Assembly (NCBI RefSeq): GCF_056746865.1
Contig: NZ_CM163382.1
Direction: 5' to 3' (one strand)
DNA length: 64,000 nt
Position numbers and translations under genes: made by a program. Below the pieces are notes generated by a model. The model had not been told where the DNA came from. It saw only the letters and a list, made by a program, of their open reading frames with translations, and did no database searches. Of this stretch, positions 15,544 through 63,807 are shown piece after piece. Position 1 is the stretch's first letter; each line of letters starts with the position of its first letter.

Positions 15544-16215
15544 AATAGTTACCTTTTATGAGTATTTCACTGATGTTTAGAAAAATAGATAAATTTTTCT
15601 GTAGTAAAAAGAGAAGTAAACAAATGACATGCATGTTTCTGTTGTAGTGATATCAACTCTACACGGTGATATTAAAGGGTAGGAAACACTCTAAAGTATC
15701 AAAAAACGCTCATTTAAAATTATTTGCATGCAATTTAAAAGCATATCTTATTACTAATTGGAATTTGATGTTGCTATATTGAGGTCTATATTAATAATGC
15801 CTGTGAATGGTATTTTTGATGTATTTGATATGTTATCAATTTATATTATTTACAAACTAATTGTTTCAAATAATACATGGCTGATTATGCGGAAATAAAT
15901 AATTTCCCACCGGAATTAAGTAGCAGCGGTGACAAGTATTTTCATCTACGTAACTATTCGGAATATTCAGAATATACTAGCGGTTTTTTTTTGAGTTTGA
16001 TGATTTTTATCAAATCATGACTTTTTTCCTGAAAAGTCAGTAGATATTCATAGGCAAGTAAGGTTTTATACTTTGCTGACAGGATTCAGGCCTGTCTCAG
16101 ACTGACATGGATGTAATGAACAAAAGGGAATGGCTATGGAAAATGAGCATCAATACAGTGGTGCCCGGTGTTCAGGGCAAGCCGCATATGTTGCTAAACG
16201 TCAGGAGTGCGCAAA

Positions 16216-28220: not shown

Positions 28221-29141
28221 ATGACAAACTTCACGACCAGCACGCCGCATGATGCATTATTTAAAACCTTTCTCACGCACCCTGACACTGCGCGGGATTT
28301 TATGGAGATTCATTTACCTAAAGATTTACGTGAACTGTGCGATCTCGATAGCTTAAAACTGGAATCCGCCAGCTTTGTCGATGAAAAATTGCGGGCGCTA
28401 CACTCCGATATTTTATGGTCGGTAAAGACCCGCGAAGGCGATGGCTATATCTATGTGGTGATTGAACATCAGAGCCGCGAGGACATTCATATGGCCTTTC
28501 GCCTGATGCGCTATTCCATGGCGGTGATGCAGCGCCATATAGAGCATGATAAACGCCAGCCGCTACCGTTGGTCATCCCGATGCTATTTTATCACGGTAG
28601 CCGTAGTCCTTACCCCTGGTCCCTGTGCTGGCTGGACGAATTTGCCGACCCGACTACCGCACGGAAGCTTTATAACGCCGCGTTCCCGCTGGTGGATGTT
28701 ACTGTCGTGCCAGACGACGAGATTGTGCAGCATCGCAGAGTCGCCCTGTTGGAGTTGATCCAAAAGCATATTCGCCAGCGCGATCTGATGGGGCTTATCG
28801 ATCAACTGGTAGTATTACTGGTTACAGAGTGTGCTAATGACAGCCAGATAACTGCGCTGTTAAATTACATTTTACTGACTGGCGATGAAGCGCGTTTTAA
28901 TGAGTTTATCAGTGAACTTACCCGTCGAATGCCACAACACAGGGAGCGAATAATGACGATTGCAGAGCGAATTCATAATGATGGATATATAAAAGGGGAG
29001 CAGCGCATTCTTCGATTGTTGTTGCAGAATGGGGCGGATCCTGAATGGATACAAAAGATTACCGGACTTTCGGCAGAGCAAATGCAGGCATTAAGGCAGC
29101 CCTTGCCTGAGCGTGAGCGCTATTCATGGCTCAAGAGTTAA
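28221..29141 (+). CDS. rpnD: Rpn-family recombination-promoting nuclease (PD-(D/E)XK, transposase_31-like), full length
   Basis: 306 aa, N-terminus [38 protein letters not shown] typical of the Rpn/YhgA family; uninterrupted reading frame. Confidence 0.8.
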
Positions 29142-30973: not shown

Positions 30974-31138
30974 ATGGAATTTCACGAAAACAGAGCTAAA
31001 GCGCCGTTTATCGGCTTGGTGCAACTCTGGCAGGCGGTGAGGCGTTGGCGGCGGCAAATGCAGACCCGACGCGTGTTACAGCAGATGAGTGATGAGCGGT
31101 TGAAGGATATCGGGTTACGCAGGGAGGATGTGGAGTGA
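30974..31138 (+). CDS. yjiS: Small DUF1127-family protein YjiS (54 aa)
   Basis: ATG at 30974 preceded by GAGGAGG; translation MEFHENRAKAPFIGLVQLWQAVRRWRRQMQTRRVLQQMSDERLKDIGLRREDVE, an Arg-rich DUF1127-like peptide. It is below the ORF-track length cutoff. Confidence 0.7.
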   Translation: MEFHENRAKAPFIGLVQLWQAVRRWRRQMQTRRVLQQMSDERLKDIGLRREDVE

Positions 31139-31588
31139 GGGGGGATATAGATTTATATATAATAAAACGTTTTTATGTTTTTAAATTAAGTTATAAAAAT
31201 TTTCCCGAGACAATTCATCAATAGGTATGGAGTGTACAGGAATATCTTCTTCACTAACCTCTTTAAACTCATGTCGATAACGGTCAAAAAACGCACAGTG
31301 ATTACTTGTGTTTTTTGACTGACTTTACAACTCTCATTATTCGCTATTGTGCAGTTTCTCTAATTGTTTTATACCCTGGAAAGTTAAATGTCAGCTACTG
31401 AATACTTTTTGATTGTTTGAGATTTATTTTCATTTGAAATTATAAAATCAGGTGATAAATGAGTTGTGATTAATAGATGGTTGATATCATTTTTATCTAA
31501 AATTGATTTATAGTATCGACCTGAAAAAATAGTTGTTGCCGCCTGAGTAACTATACAATATTCTGAAAGGTTTTCTTTCAAATTAGAA

Positions 31589-34500
31589 ATGTTGTGGGGT
31601 TTTGTTTTTGTATCTTTTATCTCTAAGGAGCTTGCTTTGGGTCAATCAGAATACATTTCATGGGTAAAATGTACTTCCTGGCTAAGTAACTTTGTGAATC
31701 TTAGAGGGTTGAGACAACCGGATGGCCGTCCTCTTTATGAATATCATGCAACCAATGATGAATATACCCAATTAACGCAGCTACTCCGTGCAGTCGGTCA
31801 ATCACAATCTAATATATGTAATAGGGACTTTGCTGCCTGTTTTGTTCTTTTTTGCTCTGAGTGGTACCGCAGGGATTATGAACGGCAATGCGGATGGACG
31901 TGGGACCCTATATATAAAAAAATAGGGATTTCATTCACCGCCACAGAGCTTGGTACTATCGTACCGAAAGGGATGGAAGATTACTGGCTGCGCCCAATTC
32001 GATTTTATGAATCTGAACGACGCAATTTTCTCGGAACATTATTCAGTGAAGGTGGTTTACCTTTCCGGCTACTCAAAGAATCAGACAGTCGCTTTCTGGC
32101 TGTTTTCTCCAGGATCCTTGGACAATATGAGCAAGCAAAGCAGTCAGGTTTTTCTGCCCTTTCGCTGGCAAGAGCTGTCATAGAAAAATCAGCGCTGCCA
32201 ACTGTTTTTAGCGAAGATACCTCTGTAGAACTTATCAGTCATATGGCTGATAACCTCAATTCCTTAGTACTTACTCACAACCTAATAAATCACAAAGAAC
32301 CAGTACAACAGCTTGAGAAGGTTCACCCTACCTGGCGAAGCGAGTTTCCAATACCGTTAGATGATGAAACAGGAACGCATTTTTTGAATGGACTGCTATG
32401 CGCAGCCTCTGTAGAGGCTAAGCCTCGACTACAAAAAAATAAGAGTACGCGTTGCCAATTCTATTGGTCAGAAAAGCATCCAGATGAGCTTAGGGTGATA
32501 GTATCTCTTCCGGACGAAGTTTCCTTTCCTGTAACAAGCGAGCCGTCAACTACGCGCTTTGAACTTGCCATTTGTGAAGATGGTGAGGAAGTCTCTGGCC
32601 TTGGGCCAGCCTATGCTTCTCTGGAAAACAGACAGGCAACAGTTCGATTACGTAAAAGCGAAGTGAGATTTGGCAGGCAAAATCCATCGGCAGGTTTGTC
32701 GTTAGTGGCTCGTGCTGGAGGGATGATTGTTGGGAGCATTAAACTTGATGACAGTGAAATTGCCATTGGTGAGGTGCCGTTAACCTTCATCGTTGATGCA
32801 GATCAATGGCTGTTACAGGGACAGGCTTCTTGCAGTGTGCGAAGCAGCGATGTTCTGATTGTGCTCCCTCGGGATAATAGCAATGTTGCTGGTTTTGATG
32901 GCCAATCGAGGGCAGTAAACGTATTAGGACTAAAAGCACTACCTGTGAAGGGATGTCAGGACGTTACAGTTACAGCAAATGAAACTTATCGGATTCGCAC
33001 CGGAAGAGAACAAATCAGCATCGGAAGGTTTGCTCTAAATGGAAAGCGTGCAAGCTGGGTTTGTCATCCAGATGAAACATTTATTGGTGTACCAAAAGTC
33101 ATTTCTACACTACCGGATATTCAAAGCATTGATGTAACGCGTTACCTGAGCGGAATTTCAATTGAGCAATGTCATATACAAGAGATGCTGGGGGCTCAAT
33201 ATCTTTCTATCCGTAATAGTAAGAATGAAACGCTCTTGCGTCGCAAAATCGGTATTTTGCCTGCTGATTTCAGTATTGAGATAAAAGGTGGAATACACGC
33301 AAATGAAGGCACTATCGTAATCACCACACAGCATCCTTGTGTAGCAAAACTTAAAGATAAAACATTGGAGGCTACACGTAAGCGTACTGAGGGGCGAACA
33401 GAGATACAACTCAAAGCGGAAGGGGTACCTCCGGCATTTATTACATTACAAGTTCTGCCTAATTTGGCGGCTGACCCCATCGATATTGAGTTACCTTTTC
33501 CCGCTAAAGGCTGTCTCGCTCTTGATGTAAACGGACGTCCTCTGGATAAAAACATTACGCTGCATGATCTGCTGGGTTCCAGAGCGTTTCTGTTCTCCAG
33601 AAATGGCGAGCCGACAAGATATACATTGCAGTTGCATTTGCGCTCCGTTAGTGGATTACAGGCATGGCACGAATGGTGTTATACGGCGTTGAGCGATCGT
33701 CCTGTTGAATTGAATCTCTATAGTCTGCGCGAACATATTGAGAACCTGATTTCACTTGAGGCAGGTATTGACCAGGTTGTTGAGATGCGTATTACGGGGG
33801 CGGGTGTGGTCATGGCCTGGCAAATTCGTCGCTATAAATACAGTCTGCGCTATGATTATGAAAAAGAACTATTACTCAGCCAGTCAGTGAACCATCGTGC
33901 TGGACAGATTCCTTCCCCCGTTATCATGCTGTTAAGTGAACCCGAGAGGAAATCCATCCCCTTAGCATCAAGAATGAGCGAGGGAGTGCCTGTCGGTGAA
34001 TATGAGTTGAGCTCAATCGTTAACAAAAATGGACCGTGGTTGGTTGTCCCTAAACCGGGTGAAGAGATGGCTTTTCGTCCCTGCTTCATTCGTGGCGAAT
34101 CTTCGTTACCGGTAGAAGAAAGCAACATCCGCTCATTGCAGAAAGCGACCCAGCTTTTTAATCCACAGGCAGAAGTTAATACCATCACACTGGTTCTCGG
34201 ACAGATGGCTAACGATCCTGCCCATTCCGGCTGGCAATTTATGCGTAGCCTGTACGATCAATTTGGTTATTTACCACTGGCAACCTTTGAAGTATGGCGT
34301 GCACTGGTGCAGCATCCGCAGGCATTGGCAATGTCGCTCTTCAAATTTGAAATGTCAGCAGAGTACCTGAGTCGTATTGAGAATGAGTTCCCTATTCTAT
34401 GGGAGTTTTTCCCCATCTTTGAGATCAAAGCGGCATCTGAGCGTTTCAAATTGTTCCTGAGCCAAAAAGGTGCACCGGAGGAAACCCAGAAATTACTGGT

Positions 34501-34927
34501 TACTAATATGTTTCAACGGCTGGGGCTCGTGTTCCCGACATATGCCGATGAAATTGAGAAATGGTTAAGTAACGGACATCTCCCCCCGTCTATTCCTGAG
34601 TCTTTTGTCCACGTGTGGTATCAGGAGCTTTTACGTGAGCATAGTGAAGCTCAATGGCCAGAGTACGGCAGCAAGCGGCTGCATAGCTGGATGGCATCAC
34701 AAAAAAATCCAGTGATTGGTATTAATCCTGACGCAAATCACCGCTATTCCGTGGCCTTGTTACCCGTCTTCGCTGCAGCTGTGGCAAGCGGAAATGCTTC
34801 TTTTGAATCTGTATTTGACCGTAAACCCGGTGCCGTATTTTTCCTGAGGCAAGTCAGGGATTTCGATTCCCGCTGGTTTAAGGCCATCTTCCAGTGCAGC
34901 CTGTTGCGTTATGTTGCTAAAAAATAA
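31589..34927 (+). CDS. Large protein of unknown function (up to 1112 aa), first gene of a two-gene candidate defence operon; DruH-like by architecture
   Basis: Long uninterrupted ORF ending 12 bp before the helicase gene. No P-loop, nuclease or methylase motif recognised by eye. Coding sequence is visibly AT-richer than its neighbours. An alternative TTG start at 31637 has an AAGGAG RBS 6 nt upstream. From memory this corresponds to a full-length version of the yjiT fragment of K-12. Confidence 0.75.
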   Translation: MLWGFVFVSFISKELALGQSEYISWVKCTSWLSNFVNLRGLRQPDGRPLYEYHATNDEYTQLTQLLRAVGQSQSNICNRDFAACFVLFCSEWYRRDYERQCGWTWDPIYKKIGISFTATELGTIVPKGMEDYWLRPIRFYESERRNFLGTLFSEGGLPFRLLKESDSRFLAVFSRILGQYEQAKQSGFSALSLARAVIEKSALPTVFSEDTSVELISHMADNLNSLVLTHNLINHKEPVQQLEKVHPTWRSEFPIPLDDETGTHFLNGLLCAASVEAKPRLQKNKSTRCQFYWSEKHPDELRVIVSLPDEVSFPVTSEPSTTRFELAICEDGEEVSGLGPAYASLENRQATVRLRKSEVRFGRQNPSAGLSLVARAGGMIVGSIKLDDSEIAIGEVPLTFIVDADQWLLQGQASCSVRSSDVLIVLPRDNSNVAGFDGQSRAVNVLGLKALPVKGCQDVTVTANETYRIRTGREQISIGRFALNGKRASWVCHPDETFIGVPKVISTLPDIQSIDVTRYLSGISIEQCHIQEMLGAQYLSIRNSKNETLLRRKIGILPADFSIEIKGGIHANEGTIVITTQHPCVAKLKDKTLEATRKRTEGRTEIQLKAEGVPPAFITLQVLPNLAADPIDIELPFPAKGCLALDVNGRPLDKNITLHDLLGSRAFLFSRNGEPTRYTLQLHLRSVSGLQAWHEWCYTALSDRPVELNLYSLREHIENLISLEAGIDQVVEMRITGAGVVMAWQIRRYKYSLRYDYEKELLLSQSVNHRAGQIPSPVIMLLSEPERKSIPLASRMSEGVPVGEYELSSIVNKNGPWLVVPKPGEEMAFRPCFIRGESSLPVEESNIRSLQKATQLFNPQAEVNTITLVLGQMANDPAHSGWQFMRSLYDQFGYLPLATFEVWRALVQHPQALAMSLFKFEMSAEYLSRIENEFPILWEFFPIFEIKAASERFKLFLSQKGAPEETQKLLVTNMFQRLGLVFPTYADEIEKWLSNGHLPPSIPESFVHVWYQELLREHSEAQWPEYGSKRLHSWMASQKNPVIGINPDANHRYSVALLPVFAAAVASGNASFESVFDRKPGAVFFLRQVRDFDSRWFKAIFQCSLLRYVAKK

Positions 34928-34939
34928 AAAGGAATAAGG

Positions 34940-37900
34940 ATGACTACACGCTATTTTTCGTCACTTATTGAACAATCGTTGTCTCGTTCAACTGAAGCAA
35001 CGCTCAGTATCATGGGCGTTACCAACCCGCAGCTGCGTGAACATCTCGCGCAACAAATGGGGGCTGATTGTGGGAAACCGGGCTCATTCCTTGCTTCTCC
35101 GGTATTCCAGCAAATGTTTGGCTGGAAGGAGTCAAACCACACGATGCGCAGCCTGACGGAAGGCAACGCATTGTTGAGCAAAGCAGTGGTTGATTCACTG
35201 GATGATCAGAATAATGGCCGGTACCGGTTTGGTGCTGACTGGAGGCCTTTTACGCACCAGTTAGCCAGTTGGAAAGCTTTGCTGGAAAAGAAACATTCAG
35301 TGGTGGTAACCAGTGGTACGGGTTCAGGTAAAACGGAATGTTTTATGGTACCGGTGCTGGAAGATCTTTACCGGGAACTGCATGAAAATGGCAACAATCC
35401 GTTGGTCGGTGTCCGAGCCCTTTTTCTCTATCCATTGAACGCCCTGATTAATTCACAGCGCGAGCGTCTGGATGCCTGGACGCGTGGTTTTGGTACAGGG
35501 ATCCGCTACTGCCTTTACAACGGCAACACCGAAAACCTACACGCTTCGGTAAAAAGCGAACAGGCAAAAAGGCCGAATGAGGTGCTCTCGCGCGAAAAAA
35601 TGCGTGAAGAACCTGCGCCGATTCTGGTGACCAACGGCACGATGCTGGAATATATGATGGTTCGCCAGGTCGACGCCCCGATTATCCAGCAATCTAAAGC
35701 ACAAAAATCACTACGCTGGATTGTACTGGATGAAGCGCATACCTATGTAGGGTCGCAGGCCGCTGAACTGGCGCTCCAGCTGCGTCGTGTGATGACCGCG
35801 TTTGGCGTGACACCAGATGACGTGCGCTTTGTCGCGACCTCTGCGACCATTGCCGGCAGCGACGCTGAAAAGCAGCTGAAAAAATTTCTCTCTGAATTAT
35901 CCGGTATCCCGCAGGAGCGCATCGATGTTCTGGACGGAAGTCGGGTGATTCCTGAACTGGAACCATCCAAAAACGTTTCTGTTCCGTTAGACGAGATAGA
36001 GCAAATACCTGATCTGGATCTAAGAGATAAAAATGATAATAAAATTAAAGGGATAAGTCCTGAGCGCTTTTATGCGCTTACGCATTCCCCCGAAGCGCGT
36101 TACATACGTGAGATGTTGGTCAAACAGCCCAATCCGATGAAGCTGGATGAGATAACAGAGCGGTTACACGTGCTGACAAAACAGCATTACAGCCAGCAGG
36201 AAGTACTGCGTTGGATCGATGTCTGTTCAGGGACTCAACCTAATGCAAAGGATCCCGCATTTCTTAAAGTCAGGGCGCATATCTTCCAGCGTAATACCCA
36301 GGGAATATGGGCTTGTGTTGATAAAGATTGCAGATTAAAGCACGGTACACCGCTCGACAAAGGCTGGCCCTTTGGCTATGTGTATGTGAACCAGCGACAA
36401 AATTGTGACTGTGGAAGCCCTGTATACGAAGTTGCATTCTGTAATGATTGTAATGAGCCTCATCTTCTGGCACGGGACAAAAAGGGCAAACTAGTCCAGT
36501 GGGAAAATAAAGGTGGCGATGAATTCTCTTTGCAGGATGAAGTACCTGTTGAACATGACGCTACAGAAGAAAAAGTCGAAAAAGAGAACAGTTTTCAGCC
36601 TCCGTTGATTATTGCCGCAGGAGAGACCAGCGAGGCAGGTTATACCCTACAACGCCTCGACCGTCAGACGCGCCGTATTGGCGTTATTAACAATGACAGC
36701 ATTCCGCTGATTATTAATGATATTGAACAGGTTTGTAGTGCCAGTGGCTGTGGCTACAGAGGCATGAGTGGGAAACAGCCCTTCCGGCGTGCACTATTAG
36801 GTGGGCCATTTTACGTTACTAATATCGTGCCCACCGTTCTAGAGTATTGTCAGGACTTTACCAGTGATGAAGGCAAAGAGGGCGTCGGACCAGATTCGTT
36901 GCCAGGACGAGGTCGTCGACTCATCACCTTTACAGACAGTCGACAAGGGACAGCCCGAATGGCGGTGCGTATGCAGCAAGAAGCAGAACGCAGTCGCTTA
37001 CGCGGAAGCGTAGTCGAAATTCTCAGCTGGCATCAAAGGACGCAAACGTCTACAGCGCCGAATGCCAATGCCGATCTGGAAAAATTAGCGGCCAGGGCGA
37101 AGCAAGCCCGTGAGCAGGCAGAAGAATATCGAAGCTGGGGAATGCCAGACCAGGCGAAATTGTCACAAGCACAGGCTGAACAGCTTGAACAGGCTTATCA
37201 GGCTGCAACCGGTGGGAAAGCTGCGACTATCCTGGTATCCCGAACCTGGACGGAGATGGTTAACGAGCTTAAAGAGAGAGCCGATATCCGCGGGCCGGTT
37301 CTGCAATATAACCATTATCTTAAGCCTGAAGTGTTTAATGAAAACGGCGGCCCCCTTAAGCTTTCTGAAATGTTGTTGTTCCGGGAATTCATGCGTCGCC
37401 CTAAACGGACTAACAGCCTGGAAACACAGGGGCTGGTTCAGGTTGGTTACCAGGGGCTGGAGAAAATACATAAGAGCCCCTTGCACTGGCAGGAAAAAGG
37501 ATTAACGCTGGATGACTGGCGCGATTTTCTCAAGGTTACGTTGGATCATTACGTTCGCGAGAGCAACTTCACACAGCTGGATGATGAGCTGAAAAACTGG
37601 ATTGGTAGCCGTTTTTCATCAAAATTCGTCCGTAACCCGGAATCAAAAGATCCTGAAGATAATCAGAACAGACGCTGGCCTCAAATTCGTAATGGCAACG
37701 TATCCCATCGTTTAGCGAAGTTGCTGATGCTGGGGGCTGGATTCAAAACCGTCAATGCGGCAACTATTGATATTATCAATACATGGCTGAAAGAAGCATG
37801 GGCCCAACTTACCGGACCGCTTGCAGTACTGAAACCCGATGGCAACCGTTTTTATTTACCGAAAGAGCATATGACTTTTTCTTTAATCACGGATGCCTGG

Positions 37901-40900
37901 ATTTGCCCGGTAACCAATAAAATCCTGGATACGGCTTTTAAAGGCTTAACCCCTTATCTGCCTACCCATATTTCGTTCGAGCATCTTACCCTGGCGCAAT
38001 ATGACACTTTTGTCGCGCAGAAAGTCACAATGCCGGAAATCTGGAAGCTGGATCGTTCACAGGAAGACTACGCAGAGGGTCTGGCAAAAGCACGCGACTG
38101 GGTCAGCCATGATCCGCTGATCGCACAATTGCGGTCGGAAAACGTCTGGACAGACATTAACGATCGTGTCGTGGAAGGCGGCTTCTACTATCGTACTGCC
38201 GAGCACTCTGCCCAGCAGTCGTCAGAACGTCTGCAAAGCTATGAAAAGATGTTCAAGAATGGGCAACTAAATGTTCTCAACTGTTCCACCACCATGGAAA
38301 TGGGGGTTGATATCGGGGGTATTACTGCGGTGGTAATGAACAACGTACCGCCACATCCGGCCAACTATTTACAGCGCGCCGGGCGAGCCGGGCGTAGTAA
38401 AGAATCACGCGCGATCTCTTACACCCTATGTAAAGGTAACCCACACGACCAGCAGGTTTTTGCCAACCCGCTCTGGCCATTTGAAACCATGATCCCGGCA
38501 CCCATGGTCGCGATGAACTCCGCCCGACTGGTGCAACGTCACGTCAATGCATTATTACTGTCCGACTTTTTATGTAACGTTATTGGCGAAACCGATAAAG
38601 AAAAAACCAGCCTCGATAGCCTCTGGTTTTTCGGTGAAGATGACGGGCAGTCAAAATGCGAACGCTTTAAAATCTGGCTGGAACGTCCGGTTCTTGATAT
38701 CGACACGGCGCTGGAACGGCTGGTGAAAGGTACGGCGTTGCATGGTGCAAGAGCCGAATATCTGCGGGATAAAACAATCAACGCGATCACCTTCCTGCAA
38801 CAGCGGTGGCTCTCCGTTTATCGCGATCTCGTGACACAGGAGCGTGAGTCGCAGCCGCAAACGCCTTATCGTAAGCGCATAGAGCTGGAGAAGAAACGGC
38901 ACTGTGGCGAGTATCTGCTGCGCGATCTGGCTGCCAGAACCTTCCTGCCGGGATACGGTTTCCCGACAGATGTAGTGACGTTTGATAACTTCACGATGGA
39001 AGATTATATCCGCGAAAAATCGCAGAAAAGTCGTGATAAAAAGGACCGTGAAGATAACGTTTCCCGTTATAAAGGATTACCTTCCCGTAACCTCGGTGTT
39101 GCCATTCGTGAATATGCACCGGGAGCAGAGATCATCCTTGATGGCCGTGTCTTCCGCTCTGCCGGTGTCTCACTGCACTGGCACAACATTAATGCTGATA
39201 CCAATGAAGCCCAGCGTCTGGATTGCGCCTGGCGCTGTCACAAATGCGGGACCATTGGCTATGAAGAGGGGATGAGCAGTTCCGGGATGCTCTTTTGCTC
39301 CAATAGCGCCTGCGGCGAAAAAATAATCATGGATAATCGCCGTCAGGTGCTGCAGCCTGCCGGGTTTGTCACCGATGCACACGCTCCGGTAACGAACAAT
39401 ATTGAAACCATGAAATTCGTCCCGGTTGTCCCCGCGTGGGTCTTTGTTAAAGCAGAGCCCGTACCGTTGCCTAACCCGCTAATGGGTTATATGGCTTCTG
39501 GGGCTGATGGGCATGTTTTCCAGCAAAGTTTGGGGGAAGGTGGACACGGTTATGCATTGTGTCTGAGCTGTGGCCGTGCTGAGTCGATGCTGAATGAAAA
39601 TGATGCGCCGAAAAGTATGGAAGCTCACTATCCACCGCGTCCGGGTAAAGCGGATCGCGACAGCCAGAATCATCGTCTGATTTGCCCCGGTTCGACGGCA
39701 CTCATGAAGAATGTCACCCTGGGCGCACTGGCGCGTACCGATGTCTTTGAAATGGTTCTGCGCAAACCGCAAAACGGCGAGTATCTGCCAGATAACACAG
39801 AGGAGGGGCGGATTGTTGCCATGACTCTGGCGGTTGCTCTGCGTCAGGCGCTGGCGGGCGTTCTGGGTATCTCCGCCGCAGAACTCGGCTATTCTGTACG
39901 TCCGGTCAGACTGGAGGATGGGCAATCGGTATTAGCCGTACAGCTTTATGATGTGATCAGCGGTGGTGCAGGTTTTGCCTCCAGCGCACCGGTACACATT
40001 GAAGCTATATTGCAGGGAATGGTGAAACAGTTAGGCTGCCGCCATTGTGAGACTGCATGTAGTGAATGCCTGCTTGATTCCCAGACTCGCCACGATCACG
40101 ATTTGCTGGATCGCAAAGCGGCGCTGGCCTGGCTTGGCGATGACTTCACGTATTACATCGGTTTACCGGATGAAGAGACATTCTCGCTGCCGGATGCCCG
40201 CTACTGCCCTGGCGCCATTGGCGATACGATTCGCCGGGCGATTAACGAAGGCGCTGAAAAGCTCACCCTGTGGATGACCGGCGCGCCCAATGAGTGGGAT
40301 TTATACGCACGTCAGTTCCGCGCGGCGGTTCAGAACTATCGGCTAAAAGACAACGTCGAGGTCGATCTTGTTATTCCTACGGGAGTGGATGACCCGGACC
40401 TGTTGCATGAACTATCGCAATTTACTGCGCTGGGTGTGCGGCTGTGCCATGTTGAACAGGATCTGCAATTACCGATCGTTGCCCAGGTCACCTTTACCGA
40501 TCGCGTGATGACGCTGGCCTCTCGCAGCCAGCAGGCAACGATTCCGGGGCCGGAGTGGCACCTGAATGACGAACTGGTGGTGCGTAGTCTCGGTTATAAA
40601 ACGGTAGAACTGAACGAGTTTATTCTGCCGGCTAAAGCCACCAACGCTGTCGAGCGGGTCAAAGACATTCAGATCCACAAACAGTTGAATGGACCACTGT
40701 CGCAGTTTGGGCAACGCTTCTGGGACGTGCTGTTTAACGACCATGAAGAAGCGCAGTCACTGATGAATAACACGCGAATTACCGGCGTTCACTATACCGA
40801 TCGCTATCTGCAAAACCCGGTTGCGCTGGCGTTGTTGGGATCAATTCTGAGACCGCTAAAAACAAAGCTGACCGATGGCGCTGAAGTGACGCTGGATACG

Positions 40901-41284
40901 CTATTTAAAGATAAAGATCGCCCCGGTAACCGGCCTTTCCATGACTGGATGAGCATAGCGGATTTTCAGGATTTCGCTGATCAGTGGTTTGCTGCTGCGC
41001 TGGGCAGGCCGGTAGAACTGACGGTGTTCGACTCGCCGCGCGATATCCCTCACCATCGTAAACTGACGGTGACTTTTGAGGATGGTCAGGTATTGAAGAT
41101 CCGCTTCGATCAGGGGATGGGCTACTGGCGCATCAACTTTTCATCGCAATGGCATTACTTTGATTTCCGCGATGACGTTTCTTTCCAGTTAGTCAAAATG
41201 GCTCAGGCCTGCAAGGAAGGGAATGTCGCCAACAGCGAAGAGAGTTGGGCAACGGATGTGCTGGTGGAGGTGATCGCCTCCTGA
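34940..41284 (+). CDS. Giant (2114 aa) superfamily-2 DEAH-box helicase with Zn-ribbon / DUF1998-like Cys clusters; DruE-like by architecture
   Basis: ATG at 34940 with AAGGA RBS. Walker A GTGSGKTE (35315-35338), motif II IVLDEAH (35720-35740), motif [10 protein letters not shown] (38372-38395), Cys clusters CAWRCHKCG (39224-39247) and [11 protein letters not shown] (40037-40069). Operonic with the upstream 1112-aa gene. Confidence 0.85.
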
Positions 41285-41291
41285 TGATGAG

Positions 41292-41326
41292 CCGCTCCCG
41301 ATGTGGTGTCGGGAGCGGTATTTTCT
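41292..41326 (+). terminator. Rho-independent terminator of the two-gene operon
   Basis: CCGCTCCCGA-TGTGGTG-TCGGGAGCGG hairpin directly followed by TATTTTCT, 8 bp after the helicase stop codon; placed between the convergent helicase gene and mcrC. Confidence 0.7.
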
Positions 41327-41340
41327 ATAAAACTTACCGC

Positions 41341-55708: not shown

Positions 55709-56100
55709 AGTAAAACCTGGCATTTTACTCGTCGTCTTTTGGCTTACAGGTGCGGCAGCTGCGTTCGTTCACCTCTGACACTTACTGTTGTAAGCTCCCG
55801 GGGATTCACTCACTTGCTGCCTTCCTGCAAACCAAAATCCATAGAGTAATTTGTTAATCATAGGCCGAAGCCGTTCTAGGTTTGCGTTGCGTTTGAGGAG
55901 GTAAATTGACCGCTATCCTGCAGTGATGTTGCCAGAGATACGCGCGCGTAAAGTAAGGTAAATAACTGAGTGGTTATTTTAGGGATGTAAGCGGTCAGGA
56001 ATGGCGGTGAGCGGTTGGGCAAGAATTATTCATCGGGTGGATATGTGATTGAGATCACAATAAAAATGCCCCTTCGACGAATGCGTGAAGGGGCTGGAGC

Positions 56101-56613
56101 TTAAATCGCAGCTTCCATTTCCAGCATCACCGGATGGAAACGGCGTTTAAAGTAGATAAGTCCGTGACCTTCTGCACTGAGGATGATGTTTTTAATCTCC
56201 ACCAGATACACCAGATGTGTGCCAATTGCCTGCACATCGCGGATCTCACCTTCAAGACTGGCCAGCGAACCTTTTAGCACCGGCTGCGCCAGCGGACCTT
56301 TTTGCCAGCATGAGAGGCTAAAACGCTCTTCCATCGCCATGCCTGTCATGCCCGCGAAGTGGCGTGCCATCAGTTCCTGCTCATGGTTGAGGACGTTGAC
56401 GCACAACTTGCCGTTGCCCTGAAAAACCGGGTTCATCGCACTGTTGGCGTTAATGCACACCATCAGCGACGGTGGTGTATCCGTGACCGAGCAGACAGCC
56501 GTTGCCGTAATCCCGCATTGTCCGGTGTCGCCCTCGGTGGTGATAATATTTACCGCTGCCGACAGGCTGGCCATCGCGTCACGAAAGCGCAGGCGTTGTT
56601 CATCTAATTGCAT
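56101..56613 (-). CDS. hpaC: 4-hydroxyphenylacetate 3-monooxygenase, flavin:NADH reductase component HpaC
   Basis: 170-aa flavin-reductase-family protein directly downstream of hpaB. Confidence 0.88.
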   Translation of the reverse strand: MQLDEQRLRFRDAMASLSAAVNIITTEGDTGQCGITATAVCSVTDTPPSLMVCINANSAMNPVFQGNGKLCVNVLNHEQELMARHFAGMTGMAMEERFSLSCWQKGPLAQPVLKGSLASLEGEIRDVQAIGTHLVYLVEIKNIILSAEGHGLIYFKRRFHPVMLEMEAAI

Positions 56614-56630
56614 CTTAACCTCCTGCTGCG

Positions 56631-58193
56631 TTATTTCAGCAGCTTATCCAGCATGTTGATATCGTCGTTGTTGTGCAGGTGCGGCACAGTCCAGCCGTTC
56701 TGGTCGTATTCCGACAGGCAGCGATCAACCATCGCCATCATCTTGTCCATATTGCCGGAGCTTTGTGCCTGGCGCAGACACTGCAGGCGAATCTCATCCT
56801 GGCTACCGGAGTAGTTGATTTCATACAGTTCGTGGCGACCACCAAACTCGCTGCCAATGGCGTCCCACATCAGTTTGAGGATCTTGATGCGCTGGACGTG
56901 ATCCATACCATTCGAACCGCGCACATACTTCGCCAGATACTGGTCGATCTGCGGATTGTTCAGGTCACGGGCACTGGAAGGGAGGTAGATCAGGCCACTG
57001 GTAACGTTGCGTTCGATAATGTTTTTGATCTTCGCGTAGGCCATTGGTGCCAGTACGCGATAGGTTTGCAGTGCGGCATGATCCGGTAAATAAGCCCCGT
57101 TGACCCACGGCGTCGCTTCAGAACACATCGAGTCACTCAATGCCCAGAAGGTGTTGCGCCACGCCACCACTTCACCGAGATCGGCCTGCACACCACGGAA
57201 CTCCAGGGTGCCGGTACATTCGAGTGATTTTTTCAGCAGTGCCGTAATGAAGTCGAGTTTCACTGCCAGGCGCACACAGGCTTGCAGCGGATACATACGG
57301 GCAAAACCGCCTTCCATCGTCCAGCGACGGCAGCGATCAAAATCGCGGTAGATCAGCACGTTTTCCCATGGGATCAGCACGTTATCCATCACCAGAATCG
57401 CATCATTCTCATCGAAGCGGCTGGAGAGCGGGTAGTCATACGGTGAGCCGGTAGCACCCGCGACCATCTCATAAGAGGCGCGGGAGATTAATTTCACGCC
57501 ATCAGCATCCATTGGCGCAACGAACATCAGCGCGAAGTCCGGGTTTTCGCCCATTACTTGTGCCGAGCCGAAGCCAACCATGTTGTAGTGAGTCAGCGCC
57601 GAGTTGGTGGCAACCACTTTCGCACCGCTAACGATAATCCCGGCGTCAGTCTCTTTTTCCAGCTTGATGTAAACGTCTTTCACTTTATCGGTCGGCAAAT
57701 GACGATCGATCGGTGGGTTAACAATCGCGTGGTTAAAGTAGAGGCCAGTTTCCTGAATACGGGTATACCAGTTACGGGCGTTCTGCTCGAACTGACCGTA
57801 AAAGCCCGGATTCGCGCCCAGTGCGCAACCGAAAGCAGCTTTGTAGTCTGGGGTACGGCCCATCCAGCCATAGCTCAGGCGTGACCACTCAGCGATGGCG
57901 TCGCGTTGCTGGCGCAGGTCGTCGGCACTTTTCGCCACGCGGAAGAATTTATGGGTATAGCCGCCGCTGCCGGTGTCGGTGTTCCAACACAGAGAGTCCT
58001 GCATCTCCGGTTTGTGCAGCGCGTCGTACAGTTGGGCAACAGACGCTGCCGCATTACGAAATGCCGGATGAGTAGTGACGTCTTTCACTCGCTCGCCATA
58101 GATATAGATCTCGCGACCATCCTGCAGGCTTTTCAGATACTCTTCCCCGGTGAACGGACGTTGGGTACTGGCGCGGAAATCTTCTGGTTTCAT
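56631..58193 (-). CDS. hpaB: 4-hydroxyphenylacetate 3-monooxygenase, oxygenase component HpaB
   Basis: 520-aa two-component FADH2-dependent monooxygenase-family protein (MKPEDFRASTQRPFTGEEYLKSLQDGREIYIYGERV...). Confidence 0.9.
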   Translation of the reverse strand: MKPEDFRASTQRPFTGEEYLKSLQDGREIYIYGERVKDVTTHPAFRNAAASVAQLYDALHKPEMQDSLCWNTDTGSGGYTHKFFRVAKSADDLRQQRDAIAEWSRLSYGWMGRTPDYKAAFGCALGANPGFYGQFEQNARNWYTRIQETGLYFNHAIVNPPIDRHLPTDKVKDVYIKLEKETDAGIIVSGAKVVATNSALTHYNMVGFGSAQVMGENPDFALMFVAPMDADGVKLISRASYEMVAGATGSPYDYPLSSRFDENDAILVMDNVLIPWENVLIYRDFDRCRRWTMEGGFARMYPLQACVRLAVKLDFITALLKKSLECTGTLEFRGVQADLGEVVAWRNTFWALSDSMCSEATPWVNGAYLPDHAALQTYRVLAPMAYAKIKNIIERNVTSGLIYLPSSARDLNNPQIDQYLAKYVRGSNGMDHVQRIKILKLMWDAIGSEFGGRHELYEINYSGSQDEIRLQCLRQAQSSGNMDKMMAMVDRCLSEYDQNGWTVPHLHNNDDINMLDKLLK

Positions 58194-58443
58194 GTCGACC
58201 TCTACAGTATTAATCGGAATACGATTGTTAATTTTGTGTGTTGTTTTTGTTATTCAATTGAAGCTTGCAGGGGCGATTACGGGAAGAGACTTTTGGGACA
58301 ATGGCTGGTACTTTTCAGGTCGGGTACGGTTTTGTGATCGAGGTCGCTTTTAGCGATTTTTGACGTTACTAAATCCCCTTGCTCCAGGCGGAGAAAGGGG
58401 AATAGCAGGTGGTGCCTGGTTTCCCGTTAAGGCTAAGGGATTT

Positions 58444-59334
58444 TCACGTCACAGGTACTTTTTTGGCACGATAAGCACTGGGCGAGCAACCGACTAAGCG
58501 ATAAAAAAAGCGCGCAAAATAAGCCGGATCCTTAAAACCGAGTTGCCAGGCAATATTGTTCACGGCGTTATCAGAAAACAGCAGCAGCCGCTTGGCTTCT
58601 CGCAGCTGCCTGTCGAAAATCAACCGTTTTGGCGGACGGTTGGCAAAGCGACGGCAGATGTCCGTGAGTCGTGATTCGGTGATATGCAGTTCGTTAGCGT
58701 AATCCGGTACTGTCCAGTGCTGATGAAAATGGCTTTCAATCAGCATATGAAAACGCTGGAACAGTTTTAATTCTCCGCGCATCCCGCTGGCGGCATGGTC
58801 GTCGAGTTTTGCGTTACGCAGCAGTAGGGTGAACACTGCCTGTGCCAGGAGCGTCAGGGTGTGTTCCCGTCCAGGCAGTTGTTCCACCGATTCCCGCTCT
58901 ATCAGTTGCCAATAGTGTTCCAGCGCCGCCAGTTCGTCGGGTTTATCTGCCAGTGACAGGCAAATCCCCGGCAGGCCGAAGGTTTCCCGAGTGCCCGGAT
59001 ACAGAACTTCCAGCAGGGGCCAGATCAGATCTTCCCGTACCGTCAACACATGACCGTCGGCGTCAGACTCCGTAATAAACGCATGAGGTACTGACGGCGG
59101 CGTCAGGACAAACAGGGGCGCTTCCACCGAGTAGCGATGATCGTCAAGCTGTAGCTCAATCTGTCCGCTATTGAGGAAATGCATCTGAAAGTACTGTTCG
59201 TGGCGATGTGGCAGCATATGGCGGCCAAAAAATGCCGCCATGCGGGCGAACGACTGATAATGCACATCGTCCGTACCCAGGCTTTCATCGTACTCTTTGC
59301 TGATATCAATATTGGCAATCTGACGGTCACGCAT
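58444..59334 (-). CDS. hpaA: AraC/XylS-family activator of hpaBC, HpaA
   Basis: 296 aa with C-terminal AraC-type HTH; sits upstream of hpaBC. Confidence 0.85.
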   Translation of the reverse strand: MRDRQIANIDISKEYDESLGTDDVHYQSFARMAAFFGRHMLPHRHEQYFQMHFLNSGQIELQLDDHRYSVEAPLFVLTPPSVPHAFITESDADGHVLTVREDLIWPLLEVLYPGTRETFGLPGICLSLADKPDELAALEHYWQLIERESVEQLPGREHTLTLLAQAVFTLLLRNAKLDDHAASGMRGELKLFQRFHMLIESHFHQHWTVPDYANELHITESRLTDICRRFANRPPKRLIFDRQLREAKRLLLFSDNAVNNIAWQLGFKDPAYFARFFYRLVGCSPSAYRAKKVPVT

Positions 59335-59343
59335 CGTCGTTCC

Positions 59344-60720
59344 TTACGGGGTCGCTCGCGGACGGGAGGACTGCATTGGAATCGCCCAGATAATCCCCGC
59401 ACCAATCACCAGCAGCGCGGCAACAAACCACAATCCACTGTTAAAGCTGCCGGTCAGATCTTTCAACCAGCCGATCATAAACGGACTTAATGCTGAACCA
59501 ATGTTGCCAGTGGCGTTGATCACCGCAATACCGATCGCTCGTGCCCGCAGGCTGATGGACTGATCCGGTGTTGTCCAGAAAATCGCCATTGCGCTGAATG
59601 ATCCGGTCGAAGCCATAATGATCCCCAGCATCTGGATCATGTTGTGATCAGTTGCCGAAGCCAGTAACCAACCAGCGGCAGCGAACAAATAAGGAAGGGC
59701 GGTGTGATGCCTTCGTTCCTGGCGGTGATCTGAGTGACGGCTCCAGTAAATCATCCCGAGAATGGTACAAATCTGCGGTACGGCGGCCAGCAGGCCGATG
59801 GTGATATTACTGCTGCCCTGATTAAAGCTTTGCAGGATCTGCGGTGTCCAGATGCTGATCGCACTAAGTGTGTTGGTCAGGCAGAAATACGCCAGGGTAT
59901 ACATCATCACCACCGGAGTGAAGATCTCCCGCCACATGCTGCGTTGTTGCATGGCGTGGTGGCTGATGGCTCCCTCTGGCTGAACCAGCGTCAGACGATC
60001 GTTATCCATCATCTCTTGCAGGCATTTTTTGTCTTCTTTCGTCAGCCACTTAGCTTTGTCCGGTGAGTCATCAAGCCAGAACCACACCATGATGCCGAGT
60101 AATACCGACGGGAAGCCTTCCAGCAAAAACAGCCACTGCCAGCCTTTTAATGCCATTACGCCATCCAGCGACAAAATGTAGCCGGAAACGATCGATCCCA
60201 ACGCTGTCGTTACCGGCATTGCCACCATAAACAAGGCGTTGGCACGGGCGCGGAAATAGGCCGGAAACCAGAAGGTTAAATACAGCAGAATGCCAGGCAG
60301 AAAGCCGGCTTCGGTAATGCCAACCAGTATACGCAGTACGTACAAGCTGGTGGGGCCAGTGGCAAACATGGTGGCAGTAGAGGCGATGCCCCAAAGCACC
60401 ATGATGGTGGCGATCCAGCGCCGCGCACCGACAATACTCAGCATAATGTTGCTGGGAATGCCGAAGATGACATAAGCGGCGTAGAACAGGGTGGTGGCGA
60501 GGCCAAACATGGTGGCGCTCAGACCGAGGTCGCGTCCCATCGTGAGTCCGGCAAAGCCGATGTTGATGCGATCAAGGAACGAGAAGATAAACAGCACGAA
60601 CAGAAAGACGATCAGGCGGCGAAACAGCTTCTTAATAACCGCCTGTTGTCCGGCAGTCAGCGCTTTATGCTGATTCGCCGGATCGATACTCTCCGGTATG
60701 GCAGGTGAGGTGTCGCTCAT
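59344..60720 (-). CDS. hpaX: 4-hydroxyphenylacetate MFS permease HpaX
   Basis: 458-aa 12-TM MFS protein from MSDTSPAIPESIDPANQHKAL; the track ORF has a 20-codon upstream extension. Confidence 0.82.
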   Translation of the reverse strand: MSDTSPAIPESIDPANQHKALTAGQQAVIKKLFRRLIVFLFVLFIFSFLDRINIGFAGLTMGRDLGLSATMFGLATTLFYAAYVIFGIPSNIMLSIVGARRWIATIMVLWGIASTATMFATGPTSLYVLRILVGITEAGFLPGILLYLTFWFPAYFRARANALFMVAMPVTTALGSIVSGYILSLDGVMALKGWQWLFLLEGFPSVLLGIMVWFWLDDSPDKAKWLTKEDKKCLQEMMDNDRLTLVQPEGAISHHAMQQRSMWREIFTPVVMMYTLAYFCLTNTLSAISIWTPQILQSFNQGSSNITIGLLAAVPQICTILGMIYWSRHSDHRQERRHHTALPYLFAAAGWLLASATDHNMIQMLGIIMASTGSFSAMAIFWTTPDQSISLRARAIGIAVINATGNIGSALSPFMIGWLKDLTGSFNSGLWFVAALLVIGAGIIWAIPMQSSRPRATP

Positions 60721-60764
60721 TTTTCTTCCTCTAATGGGATTTTTGTAGGGTACGACAAGGTTTA

Positions 60765-60894
<130 letters not shown>

Positions 60895-60900
<6 letters not shown>

Positions 60901-61683
60901 CACGTCGGGCTTAATCGCTGTAGCCTGCGCACCAAACCGTGCTGCCAGCGCTTCGGCGGCGCGGGCGAGCAGGGTGGTGTCAACGCCGACGGCGACAAAC
61001 AGCGCGCCCAGTTCCAGATAGCGTTTTGCCAGTTGCTCATTGGCGATCAGGATCCCCGGCGCTTTGCCCGCTTCGCGGATCTGCACGATCGCCTGCTCAA
61101 TCGCGGCCTGTACTTCCGGGTGCTGAGGATTACCGGCATAACCCATATCGGCGCTCAGATCCGCCGGGCCGATAAACACGCCGTCGACCCCTTCCACGTC
61201 CAGAATCTGCGGTAAGTTCTTCATTGCCTCACGCGTTTCGATCTGCACCAGCACGCACATTTGATCGTTGGCTTTTTGCAGGTAATCAGGAATACGATTC
61301 CAGCGCGAGGCTCGGGCCAGCGCACTGCCCACACCGCGAATACCGGCGGGGGGATAACGGGTGGCGCGTACCGCTTCACGGGCTTCGTCAGCGTTTTGAA
61401 CCATCGGCACCAGTAAGGTTTGTGTGCCGACATCCAGCAGTTGTTTGATTTGCACCGGATCGTTCCACGACGGACGTACCACCGGCTGGCTGGGGTAGGG
61501 CGCAATCGCCTGTAGCTGGGTGAGCACGGTTTGCACGTTATTCGGCGCGTGCTCACCGTCGATCAATAACCAGTCGAATCCTGCTCCGGCCAGTAACTCT
61601 GCGCTGTAGCTGCTACTTAGCCCCAGCCATAATCCGATCTGCGGGCGGCCTGCTTTCAGCGCCGCTTTAAAACTGTTTTCCAT
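60895..61683 (-). CDS. hpaI: 4-hydroxy-2-oxoheptanedioate (HpcH/HpaI) aldolase
   Basis: 262 aa from [48 protein letters not shown] (HpcH/HpaI aldolase family); the track ORF is extended upstream into the REP cluster. Confidence 0.88.
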
Positions 61684-61693
61684 CGTTCTCTCC

Positions 61694-62497
61694 TTAAACA
61701 AAGCGGCAGCTAATGGAGCCCATGTTGCCGTAATCGACGTGGAAGGTATCGCCCTTACGCGCCGGAACCGGGCGGGTGAACGAACCGCCGAGAATGATTT
61801 GCCCGGCTTCCAGTTGTACGTCATACGGTGCGAGTTTGTTCGCCAGCCAGGCCACGCCGTTTGCCGGATGATTTAGCACACCAGCGGCGACGCCAGTTTC
61901 TTCAATCACGCCATTGCGATACATCAGGGCGGAGATCCAACGCAGATCCAGTTCGTCTGGTTTGATCGGACGACCGCCGAGGATCACTCCGGCGTTGGCG
62001 GCGTTATCAGAAATGGTGTCGAACACTTTGCGCGGGCGCTGGGTTTCCGGATCGATGTTGTGGCAGCGGGCGTCGATCAGCTCCAGCGCCGGGATCACGT
62101 AGTCCGTGGCGTTGTAGACGTCGAACAGCGTGCAGTTTGGCCCACGCAGCGGTTTTGCCAGCACAAAAGCCAGCTCCACTTCAATGCGCGGCACGATAAA
62201 GCGATCGGTCGGGATATCGCTGCCATCGTGGAAGAACATGTCGTCCAGCAATGCACCGTAATCTGGCTCGCTGATTTGTGAGCTGGCCTGCATCGCTTTC
62301 GAGGTCAGGCCGATTTTGTGGCCTTTCAGCGTGCGGCCTTCGGCGATTTTCAGTCGGACCCATTCGCGCTGTACGGCGTAGGCGTCTTCAATGGTGATCT
62401 CCGGGTAATCCAGCGAGATCGCGCGGATCTGTTCACGCTGTTTTTCTGCCTGATCCAGACGCTGGGCGATCAGGGTGTGGGTGTGTTTATCGAACAT
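61694..62497 (-). CDS. hpaH: 2-oxo-hept-4-ene-1,7-dioate hydratase HpaH
   Basis: 267 aa from [31 protein letters not shown]/hydratase family; position within the hpa meta-cleavage operon. Confidence 0.85.
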
Positions 62498-62514
62498 AGC
62501 GATATCCTGTGGCA

Positions 62515-62550
62515 TTGCCGGATGCGGCTGCGCCTTATCATCCAGCCTGG
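62515..62550. repeat. REP-like element
   Basis: GCCGGATGCGGCTGCGCCTTATC REP-type sequence between hpaH and hpaF. Confidence 0.45.
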
Positions 62551-62564
62551 AAGCTGGTGCAAAT

Positions 62565-62945
62565 TTATTTAAACAACGCGTGTACGTTGTTCTGTTTGAA
62601 ATTCAACGTCGGGTGCAGCTCTGCAATCTCAAATGAAAGCGCCAGGTAACGGCTCTCCATCAGTGAGGCGAAGTGCGTTTTAATCAGATCAAACAGCATT
62701 TCGCCTACTTCCTGACGGCTTTCCAGACTGCGCCCGCTGCCGATTTTTAGCGTCATATGCACAAAGGCGTAATCGTGCTTGCCATCAGCCATTTGCCAGG
62801 TATCGATCCAGTGTGCCCGGCTACGTATTCCCCCAAGCGGAAAAATCCCCGTCGCCGCCAGTGCGGTGTTAACACTGGCAAACAGCTCAGGTAAGCGGGC
62901 TTCTTGACGAATATTTTCAGTACATTCCACGATAAAGTGCGGCAT
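62565..62945 (-). CDS. hpaF: 5-carboxymethyl-2-hydroxymuconate isomerase HpaF
   Basis: 126-aa tautomerase-like protein with N-terminal [12 protein letters not shown]. Confidence 0.85.
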
Positions 62946-62954
62946 GGTTTTTCC

Positions 62955-63806: not shown

Positions 63807-63807
63807 A

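Follow-up and report, generated by a model that had tools for sequence, protein, structure and literature searches.

The AT-rich interval between yjiS and druH (yjiT) probably both serves as the 5′ regulatory leader of a Druantia type III cassette (druH/yjiT-druE), which was acquired horizontally and lies directly after yjiS, and forms the left junction of this cassette. The interval lies at positions 31139-31636 of the 64,000-nucleotide stretch of E. coli DNA that was analysed (the window) and has a GC content of 29.5% over 498 bp. Homology with other E. coli lineages breaks off at 31142/31143, the leader is linked to druH, and druH relatives in other genera are likewise preceded by an AT-rich leader with a promoter-like element, a Shine-Dalgarno sequence, and a TTG or GTG start codon. 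Thus, the interpretation given in a preliminary description of this DNA, an AT-rich leader typical of H-NS-silenced foreign DNA upstream of a candidate defence operon, is supported as a whole. Binding of the spacer by RNA polymerase and H-NS is already known from published K-12 data; what is new here is a ten-locus sequence comparison, which points to a weak but conserved promoter candidate (P2) and not to the published one (P1).

An AT-rich spacer at the left edge of a variable island

The window as a whole has a GC content of 50.1%, and merely 0.45% of all its 502-bp windows are as low in GC as the spacer (29.7% over 31139-31640). The GC content of the neighbouring genes is 55.2% for yjiS, 55.1% for yjiR, and 45.5% for druH. 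Runs of at least 12 nt consisting of A and T only have a density of 8.0 per kb in the spacer versus 0.57 per kb elsewhere, and the two long A/T runs singled out in the preliminary description were found at 31171-31203 and 31422-31452. When the 30 annotated intergenic regions that measure 50 bp or more (median length 182 bp, median GC content 43%) are compared, the spacer is the longest and has the third-lowest GC content, after fimB-fimE and yjiC-ytiD with 27.3% each. As in the class of H-NS targets, its AT content thus lies far above that of the flanks over hundreds of base pairs. The AT-richness described before therefore stands, and the length of about 450 bp does not, as the spacer measures 498 bp. 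Its right edge had been drawn at 31640, and is moved to 31636 because the TTG start codon of druH is located at 31637.

The small DUF1127 protein gene yjiS (30974..31138, plus strand, based on the PGAP annotation of a near-identical genome) marks the end of the conserved core genes, beyond which the variable island begins, and is common to all 2,633 matching E. coli genomes. The spacer itself is 100% identical to that of E. coli K-12, where it covers positions 4,571,916-4,572,413 of MG1655. A junction alignment showed that all lineages compared are identical up to 31142, and that homology with the other E. coli lineages stops at 31142/31143, 4 bp past the yjiS stop codon, which places the left boundary of the variable Immigration Control Region at 31143. 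In ST131, yjiS is directly followed by symE, and in O157:H7 by DUF262 and GmrSD genes. Of 5,426 genomes, 631 contain the spacer and 632 druH, and the spacer occurs only together with druH. This strict linkage and the homology break after yjiS indicate that the spacer forms the left-hand end of a mobile cassette residing in the Immigration Control Region, and the variable presence among strains bears out the proposal that this DNA was acquired horizontally. The Druantia literature has placed YjiT in the same region (PMC13192584). The spacer starts exactly at the left boundary of this region (yjiS ... mcrBC-symE-hsdSMR-mrr ... yjiA), at the point occupied by symE, or by the DUF262 and GmrSD genes, in other lineages; it differs from the region in being the leader of just one alternative occupant, and is apparently neither a recombination site nor a mobility element. 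The left segment of the spacer (31143..31280), in which 100-bp windows go down to 24% GC, is recognisable in Escherichia only and is retained in E. whittamii apart from a deletion of 14 bp, whereas blastn and the ten-locus alignment revealed no sequence similar to the first 140-170 bp outside Escherichia.

The candidate defence operon turned out to be a genuine defence system. Both druH (31637..34927, plus strand, 1,096 aa) and druE (34940..41284, plus strand, 2,114 aa), annotated as a DEAD/DEAH box helicase and encoding the helicase-nuclease effector, are full-length PADLOC matches (DruH3 and DruE3, E = 0 for both), and their adjacency is what identifies a Druantia type III system. Of note, the K-12 copy of this operon is a pseudogene, and the copy described here is intact. 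The start codon of druH annotated by PGAP, TTG at 31637, is conserved across genera as a non-ATG start (TTG at eight loci, GTG at two), the protein that begins there is matched by the PADLOC profile from its first residue onwards, and a Shine-Dalgarno sequence, AAGGAG (31625..31630, plus strand), lies 6 nt upstream and is conserved in the ten-locus alignment. An in-frame ATG at 31589, taken from the list of open reading frames, was rejected as the druH start since it is not conserved in E. whittamii and other genera, whereas the Shine-Dalgarno sequence and the TTG at 31637 are kept.

A distant blastn search revealed no further type of druH in E. coli at the DNA level. The Druantia III-A operon that is linked to Zorya II (ATCC 8739 / ECOR19 / EDL933 type) also has a short AT-rich spacer 5′ of druH, which measures 211 bp with 31.8% GC in the plasmid copy examined, and in that system a native upstream region, the putative promoter, was enough for defence in MG1655 when carried on a low-copy plasmid (bioRxiv 2026.05.13.724758). 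It differs in that its DruH is about 27% identical over the aligning N-terminal region, its druH starts with GTG, and its spacer is divergent with zorA and has no detectable sequence similarity to the one studied here.

The druH leader across genera and its promoter candidates

The leader was compared among ten druH loci from eight genera. Relatives of druH in eight other genera reside in different island contexts, with P4-like integrase, tRNA-Leu, YagK/YfjJ, DUF932 or HNH genes as neighbours. The 300 bp 5′ of druH have a GC content of 28-33% at all nine Enterobacterales loci, and such an AT-rich upstream stretch of 300 bp is missing at the Salinisphaera locus. Patches of similarity to the Citrobacter amalonaticus leader begin at about 31312 (blastn), and the segment 31312..31636 (plus strand), the cassette-linked part of the leader, resembles in patches the sequences 5′ of druH in other genera, which lie at unrelated chromosomal sites. 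According to these comparisons, an AT-rich leader of its own travels with the cassette between genomes.

A strict consensus scan with a threshold of 9 out of 12 positions called no promoter in the spacer, and candidates were then ranked with a home-made position weight matrix (PWM). The best-supported candidate core promoter is P2 (TTGCCG-17-TATTCT, 31536..31564, plus strand), which matches 8 of the 12 consensus positions and has its −35 and −10 hexamers separated by 17 bp, within the 17 ± 1 bp of sigma-70 and sigma-S promoters. It is the top PWM match in the E. coli leader with a score of 10.4, a value that shuffled leaders also reach (their top scores average 9.1, with a 95th percentile of 11.4), and it is conserved across genera. 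In the six closest loci, P2 ranks first five times and third in the remaining one, its spacer is always 17 bp, and its distance from the start codon is 56-72 nt. The TAnnnT of the −10 hexamer is invariant in all ten loci. In an alignment-wide promoter profile, the mean score of P2 was 9.25 against a background of −1.85 ± 2.65. Transcription from P2 is predicted to start at about 31569-31572 (about 4,572,346-4,572,349 of MG1655, NC_000913.3), resulting in a predicted 5′ untranslated region (UTR) of about 66 nt. Just 5′ of the −35 hexamer lies a conserved A-tract, AAAAAATAGT (31524..31533, plus strand), with nearly invariant A columns at 31525-31527, which we take to be akin to a proximal UP element.

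The suggestion that the interval holds the operon promoter agrees both with this phylogenetically conserved hexamer pair and with the RpoD-holoenzyme binding site that was mapped in vitro to the K-12 yjiS>yjiT spacer by Genomic SELEX (Shimada et al. 2014, PMC3946193). An RpoS-holoenzyme peak has been reported at 4570642, about 200 bp inside yjiT (PMC5493296), ChIP-exo binding of the LysR-type regulator YiaU at yjiT and differential expression of yjiT have been described (bioRxiv 2021.12.22.473864), and transcripts within K-12 yjiT have been seen on tiling arrays (PMC3009722).

There is a limited chance that the working promoter is not P2 but P1 or P3, or that several of them fire as in ‘promoter islands’, in which case the 5′ UTR would be 140-185 nt. 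The starts predicted for P1 and P3 are at about 31453 (MG1655 4,572,230) and about 31497 (4,572,274), respectively. P1 (TTGAGA-18-TATAAA, 31417..31446, plus strand) is the sequence-based prediction of Shimada et al. (PMC3946193, Table 3), which we located in the spacer, and sites about 100 bp apart are inseparable at the resolution of the SELEX-chip. P3 (31482..31490, plus strand) is an extended −10-like sequence, TGaTATCAT, and the second PWM match in E. coli; it falls within a sequence block (AT..TTGaTAT) that hardly varies among the ten loci, and could serve either as an alternative promoter or as the binding site of a regulator. However, P1 is only the fifth-ranked PWM match (score 5.85), its −10 lacks the final T, and conservation of its −35 does not even extend to E. 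whittamii. In the ten-locus profile, P3 reached 3.4, well below P2, and P1 fell outside the top eight. Moreover, the published list of 78 ‘promoter islands’ (Ozoline and co-workers), which ends at yjiC/iraD, contains no yjiS/yjiT entry, and the spacer has one dominant conserved promoter candidate instead of the dense overlapping ones that characterise such islands.

Hairpin and the question of functionless DNA

Between yjiS and the promoter region, an inverted repeat (I6) at 31281..31321 (plus strand) can form a hairpin consisting of an A6 tract, a stem, and a U6 tract. Its predicted folding energy is −20.1 kcal/mol (z = −4.6), a stability reached by none of 200 shuffled sequences, and it is conserved in E. 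whittamii. A6:U6 makes up much of the stem, the core of which has few G-C pairs, and the hairpin was not called by a terminator consensus scan. According to the folding prediction, it may separate yjiS from the operon by acting as a terminator, either a weak one or one that works in both directions.

The spacer could also be largely functionless DNA of an island-insertion junction that became AT-rich by mutational bias and relaxed selection, with the operon being read through from yjiS or transcribed from an unremarkable gene-proximal promoter. The leader is 78% identical between E. coli and E. whittamii, compared to 87% at four-fold sites. It thus diverges faster than synonymous sites, indicating that most of it is without sequence constraint, and both the missing counterpart of the first 140-170 bp outside Escherichia and the failure of the consensus scan to call a terminator after yjiS would fit with this reading. 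We nevertheless consider it improbable, since an AT-rich leader of 300-500 bp is present at nine out of nine Enterobacterales loci in unrelated contexts, and the conservation is confined to discrete blocks, the P2 hexamers and their 17-bp spacing being kept while the intervening sequence varies. The in vitro binding of RNA polymerase holoenzyme, and the very stable hairpin between yjiS and the promoter region, argue against it as well.

The idea that the spacer contains an overlooked small gene or structured RNA regulator, such as a 65-aa open reading frame on the minus strand (31384-31581), a small RNA or a riboswitch-like leader, is scarcely credible: 65 codons is somewhat long for DNA with 30% GC, and the hairpin is stable, but the reading frame is interrupted by in-frame stops in E. 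whittamii and two further E. coli alleles and was rejected as a gene, its substitutions show no third-position bias, PGAP annotated nothing in the spacer in nearly all genomes listed, no Rfam family was found in it even at E = 0.1 (archaeal snoRNA matches were at chance level, with E-values of at least 0.17 and far below gathering scores), and the predicted 5′ UTR shows less structure than shuffled sequences do (z = +1.2).

H-NS binding in vitro and possible control of Druantia expression

The proposed association with H-NS is backed by an in vitro H-NS binding site, marked by Genomic SELEX in the K-12 yjiS>yjiT spacer (Shimada et al. 2014, PMC3946193), the sequence of which is identical to the one analysed here. 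Since binding of both RNA polymerase and H-NS was thus already published for this sequence, the feature is real but ordinary. The high-affinity H-NS 10-mer TCGATAAATT is not enriched in the spacer, which contains one match with two mismatches. Comparable H-NS-bound regulatory regions of horizontally acquired E. coli loci are the fimB-fimE, fimE-fimA and yjiC-iraD spacers in the window, and the casA CRISPR-Cas promoter. Like the yjiS-druH spacer, these are long, have a GC content of about 27-32%, are located 5′ of accessory genes, and bind RNA polymerase as well as H-NS in Genomic SELEX; the yjiS-druH spacer differs in falling outside the 78 published ‘promoter islands’. Because K-12 yjiT is detectably transcribed, any silencing must be partial.

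If the spacer is indeed the regulatory leader of the cassette, transcription of the operon would start mainly from the weak conserved promoter P2, aided by the upstream A-tract. The conserved −10 hexamer of P2 (TAnnCT) resembles that of sigma-S-preferred promoters. H-NS would polymerise across the approximately 500 bp of AT-rich DNA and thereby dampen P2, and the hairpin at 31281-31321 would curb read-through from yjiS. In combination, the weakness of the promoter, the binding of H-NS, and the TTG start codon could ensure a low basal level of a helicase-nuclease system that may damage its own cell.

A more speculative reading, to which we give little chance, is that the AT-rich leader acts as an infection-responsive switch. 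H-NS and StpA would repress a weak sigma-S-like promoter, and druHE would become derepressed when phage anti-H-NS proteins (T4 MotB/Arn, T7 gp5.5) act, or when incoming AT-rich phage DNA titrates H-NS. According to a 2026 preprint, both H-NS and StpA become enriched with DruE upon infection and help in defence (bioRxiv 2026.05.13.724758), which makes such a functional link conceivable. If true, the loss of xenogeneic silencing would itself be the alarm.

The significance of the spacer is modest, and its analysis reveals no new kind of element. It does establish the start codon of druH in an intact Druantia III operon and where the promoter of this operon probably lies, which is useful for cloning Druantia III with its native control region, and the exact positions given here can be used to study how a helicase-nuclease defence system that may be toxic to its own cell is held at a low level.

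Setting and base composition of the yjiS-druH spacer

The 64-kb window, which spans fimB through the hpa operon, differs from E. coli FDAARGOS_497 at 4 bases. In this region, yjiR (minus strand) lies 5' of yjiS (30974-31138, plus strand), which is followed by the spacer (31139-31636), a gene annotated as yjiT (1,096 aa), a DEAD/DEAH helicase gene (2,114 aa), and then mcrC, mcrB, symE, hsdS, hsdM, hsdR and mrr, in this order. The two large proteins are DruH and DruE of Druantia type III (PADLOC models, full length, E = 0); a 2026 preprint (PMC13192584) likewise counts DruH as a member of the YjiT family, with its E. coli representative lying in the Immigration Control Region. The gap between druE and mcrC (41285-41340) is 56 bp long, with 52% GC and convergent stop codons.

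K-12 strains show 100% identity over 601 bp around the spacer, and the MG1655 coordinate (NC_000913.3) equals the window coordinate plus 4,540,777, so that K-12 data are directly applicable to the spacer. Despite this identity, the source strain is not K-12, since the window contains the 4-hydroxyphenylacetate (hpa) catabolic operon (56100-64000), which K-12 lacks. Compared to the intact operon, K-12 has two deletions, corresponding to 33146-36162 (3,017 bp) and 38313-40494 (2,182 bp), which result in the yjiT/yjiV pseudogenes. The rpnD gene for an Rpn-family recombination-promoting nuclease (28221-29141) is intact in the window (306 aa); in K-12, an internal stop makes it a pseudogene. Among the 632 E. 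coli genomes carrying this druH type, coverage of druH reaches 80% in just 222, and the remaining carriers are mostly K-12 laboratory derivatives with only its first 1,509 nt.

The preliminary description had pointed to an AT-rich interval with long A/T runs upstream of the operon, and the calculated composition bears this out. The GC content is 29.7% over 31139-31640, against 50.1% for the window, and 29.5% over the exact 498 bp between the yjiS stop and the druH start, compared to 55% in yjiR and yjiS and 45.5% in druH. Across the whole stretch, a GC content this low is reached in only 0.45% of 502-bp windows. Both A/T-rich strings that had been cited were located (31171-31203 and 31422-31452), and the spacer has 14 times as many A/T-only runs of 12 nt or longer, per unit length, as the remainder of the window. 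Ranked against the 30 intergenic regions annotated in the window (median GC 43%, median length 182 bp), the spacer comes first in length and third in AT-richness, with a lower GC content found only in fimB-fimE and yjiC-ytiD. The other deep AT troughs, fimB-fimE (783-1259), fimE-fimA with the fimS switch (1857-2337), and yjiC-ytiD/iraD (15544-15829), are all in the published list of H-NS-associated promoter islands, from which the yjiS-druH spacer is missing (PMC3661553).

Island junction and relatives in other genera

A mobile cassette has its left end in this spacer. Alignment of ST131, O157:H7 and E. whittamii showed identity through 31142, 4 bases past the yjiS TGA, and unrelated sequence beyond, with symE directly after the shared segment in ST131, and DUF262 and GmrSD genes at the same junction in O157:H7. 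The spacer is retained in only 629 of the 2,633 E. coli genomes matching the query; in the others, the match consists of the last 44 bases alone, the 3' end of yjiS. The horizontal acquisition that had been proposed thus agrees with both the abrupt end of E. coli homology and this patchy distribution. In E. coli, 631 genomes carry the spacer and 632 carry druH, indicating that they are co-inherited. Some loci are truncated: in E. coli AMSCJX03, an IS1 is inserted in the AT-rich leader (junction 31433/31434, between the two hexamers of the P1 motif discussed below), and from this junction on druHE, mcrBC, symE and the sequence into hsdS are absent. In E. coli strain 120899, yjiT breaks off after 1,575 nt, and paeA, ytfK and ytfJ take the place of druE, which points to a large rearrangement that ends on one side within druH.

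DruH has relatives with 62-95% identity in E. whittamii, Citrobacter (two species), Pseudenterobacter, Serratia, Enterobacter, Raoultella and Proteus (two species), and one with 41% identity in a Salinisphaera MAG. The yjiR-yjiS context recurs in E. whittamii alone. In Serratia sp. Ag1, the cassette directly follows a P4-type tyrosine integrase (L003 10-1239), and in C. portucalensis a tRNA-Leu(CAA) gene (L008 2583-2667) lies 333 bp upstream of it, both of which are classic genomic-island insertion contexts; YagK/YfjJ, DUF932 or HNH genes adjoin other loci. In each of the nine Enterobacterales loci, GC is down to 28-33% over the 300 bp preceding druH, compared to 44-56% farther upstream, so the AT-rich leader moves with the cassette within the H-NS-bearing Enterobacterales. 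The Salinisphaera locus showed no GC dip upstream of druH. In E. coli and Klebsiella, conjugative IncF plasmids carry a distant Druantia III type, whose DruH is ~27% identical to that of the window over the aligning N-terminal region. In plasmid pQnrS1_005237 (L021 2754-2964), this druH has a GTG start and is divergent from the Zorya II gene zorA, with a 211-bp spacer of 31.8% GC.

Promoter assignment and conserved elements

A 65-aa minus-strand ORF (31384-31581) was rejected as a gene, as it has in-frame stops in other alleles and no codon-position bias, and an Rfam search of the spacer matched no family. Identity of the leader to E. whittamii is 78%, compared to 87% at druH four-fold degenerate sites and 94% in the yjiR-yjiS spacer, and beyond Escherichia only patches align, from ~31312 on. 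Judged from these alignments, the leader as a whole is poorly constrained.

Several short elements are conserved across ten aligned druH loci. The Shine-Dalgarno sequence AAGGAG (31625-31630) and the start site at 31637, a TTG (GTG in Proteus), are kept in all ten. The PGAP start is confirmed by this, and the ATG farther upstream, at 31589, is excluded. An A-tract (31524-31529) just upstream of the P2 -35 described below is nearly invariant and resembles a proximal UP element. Equally, hardly any variation is seen in the block AT..TTGaTAT (31477-31487), which in E. coli can be read as an extended -10, TGaTATCAT (P3, 31482-31490), and might serve as an additional promoter or as a binding site for a regulator. 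In addition, a hairpin flanked by A6 and U6 tracts (31281-31321), retained in E. whittamii, has a predicted energy of -20.1 kcal/mol (z = -4.6), well above shuffled sequence in stability. It may block read-through from yjiS, but was not called in a terminator consensus scan.

That the leader may carry the operon promoter is consistent with an RpoD-holoenzyme Genomic-SELEX site reported in the yjiS>yjiT spacer (Shimada et al. 2014, PMC3946193), where the best promoter sequence match was TTGAGA-18-TATAAA. This motif, P1, is located at 31417-31446. The conserved -35/-10 pair is a different one, P2, with TTGCCG (31536-31541) and TATTCT (31559-31564) separated by 17 bp. The T, A and last T of its -10 are invariant in 10/10 loci, the TTG of its -35 is retained in the six closest loci, and the spacer length is constant while its sequence varies freely. 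The conserved form of the -10, TAnnCT, resembles that of sigma-S-preferred promoters. With a simple sigma-70 PWM, P2 was top-ranked in E. coli, and alignment-free scanning placed it first in five of the six closest loci and third in the remaining one, at 56-72 nt from the start codon throughout. In a column-wise promoter profile, P2 scored 9.25 against a background of -1.85 +/- 2.65, with the runner-up at 5.9. Not even E. whittamii retains the P1 -35, the P1 -10 is missing the critical final T, and the resolution of SELEX-chip is too coarse to tell P1 from P2; we therefore lean slightly towards P2 as the promoter. The predicted 66-nt 5' UTR is unstructured.

H-NS binding and expected expression

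The H-NS 10-mer motif is not enriched in the spacer. The identical K-12 spacer is marked as containing an H-NS SELEX site (Shimada et al. 2014, PMC3946193), so the notion of H-NS-type AT-rich DNA is backed by binding in vitro. Within yjiT, an RpoS-holoenzyme peak lies ~200 bp into the gene (PMC5493296), and the LysR-type regulator YiaU has been reported to bind at yjiT and to alter its expression (bioRxiv 2021.12.22.473864). K-12 yjiT transcripts were detected by tiling arrays (PMC3009722), hence any silencing is only partial.

Overall, the hedged interpretation in the preliminary description is supported, and the spacer is an already documented, ordinary case of a known kind, in which an AT-rich leader bound by RNA polymerase and H-NS precedes a horizontally acquired operon. 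What is added here is the exact island junction, the linkage to the cassette across genera, and a better-supported promoter assignment. The cassette would carry its own weak promoter, set within ~500 bp of AT-rich DNA, on which H-NS would be expected to damp initiation, while the hairpin would limit transcription input from yjiS and the conserved TTG start codon would lower output further. Combined, these features would hold a helicase-nuclease defense system at a low basal level.
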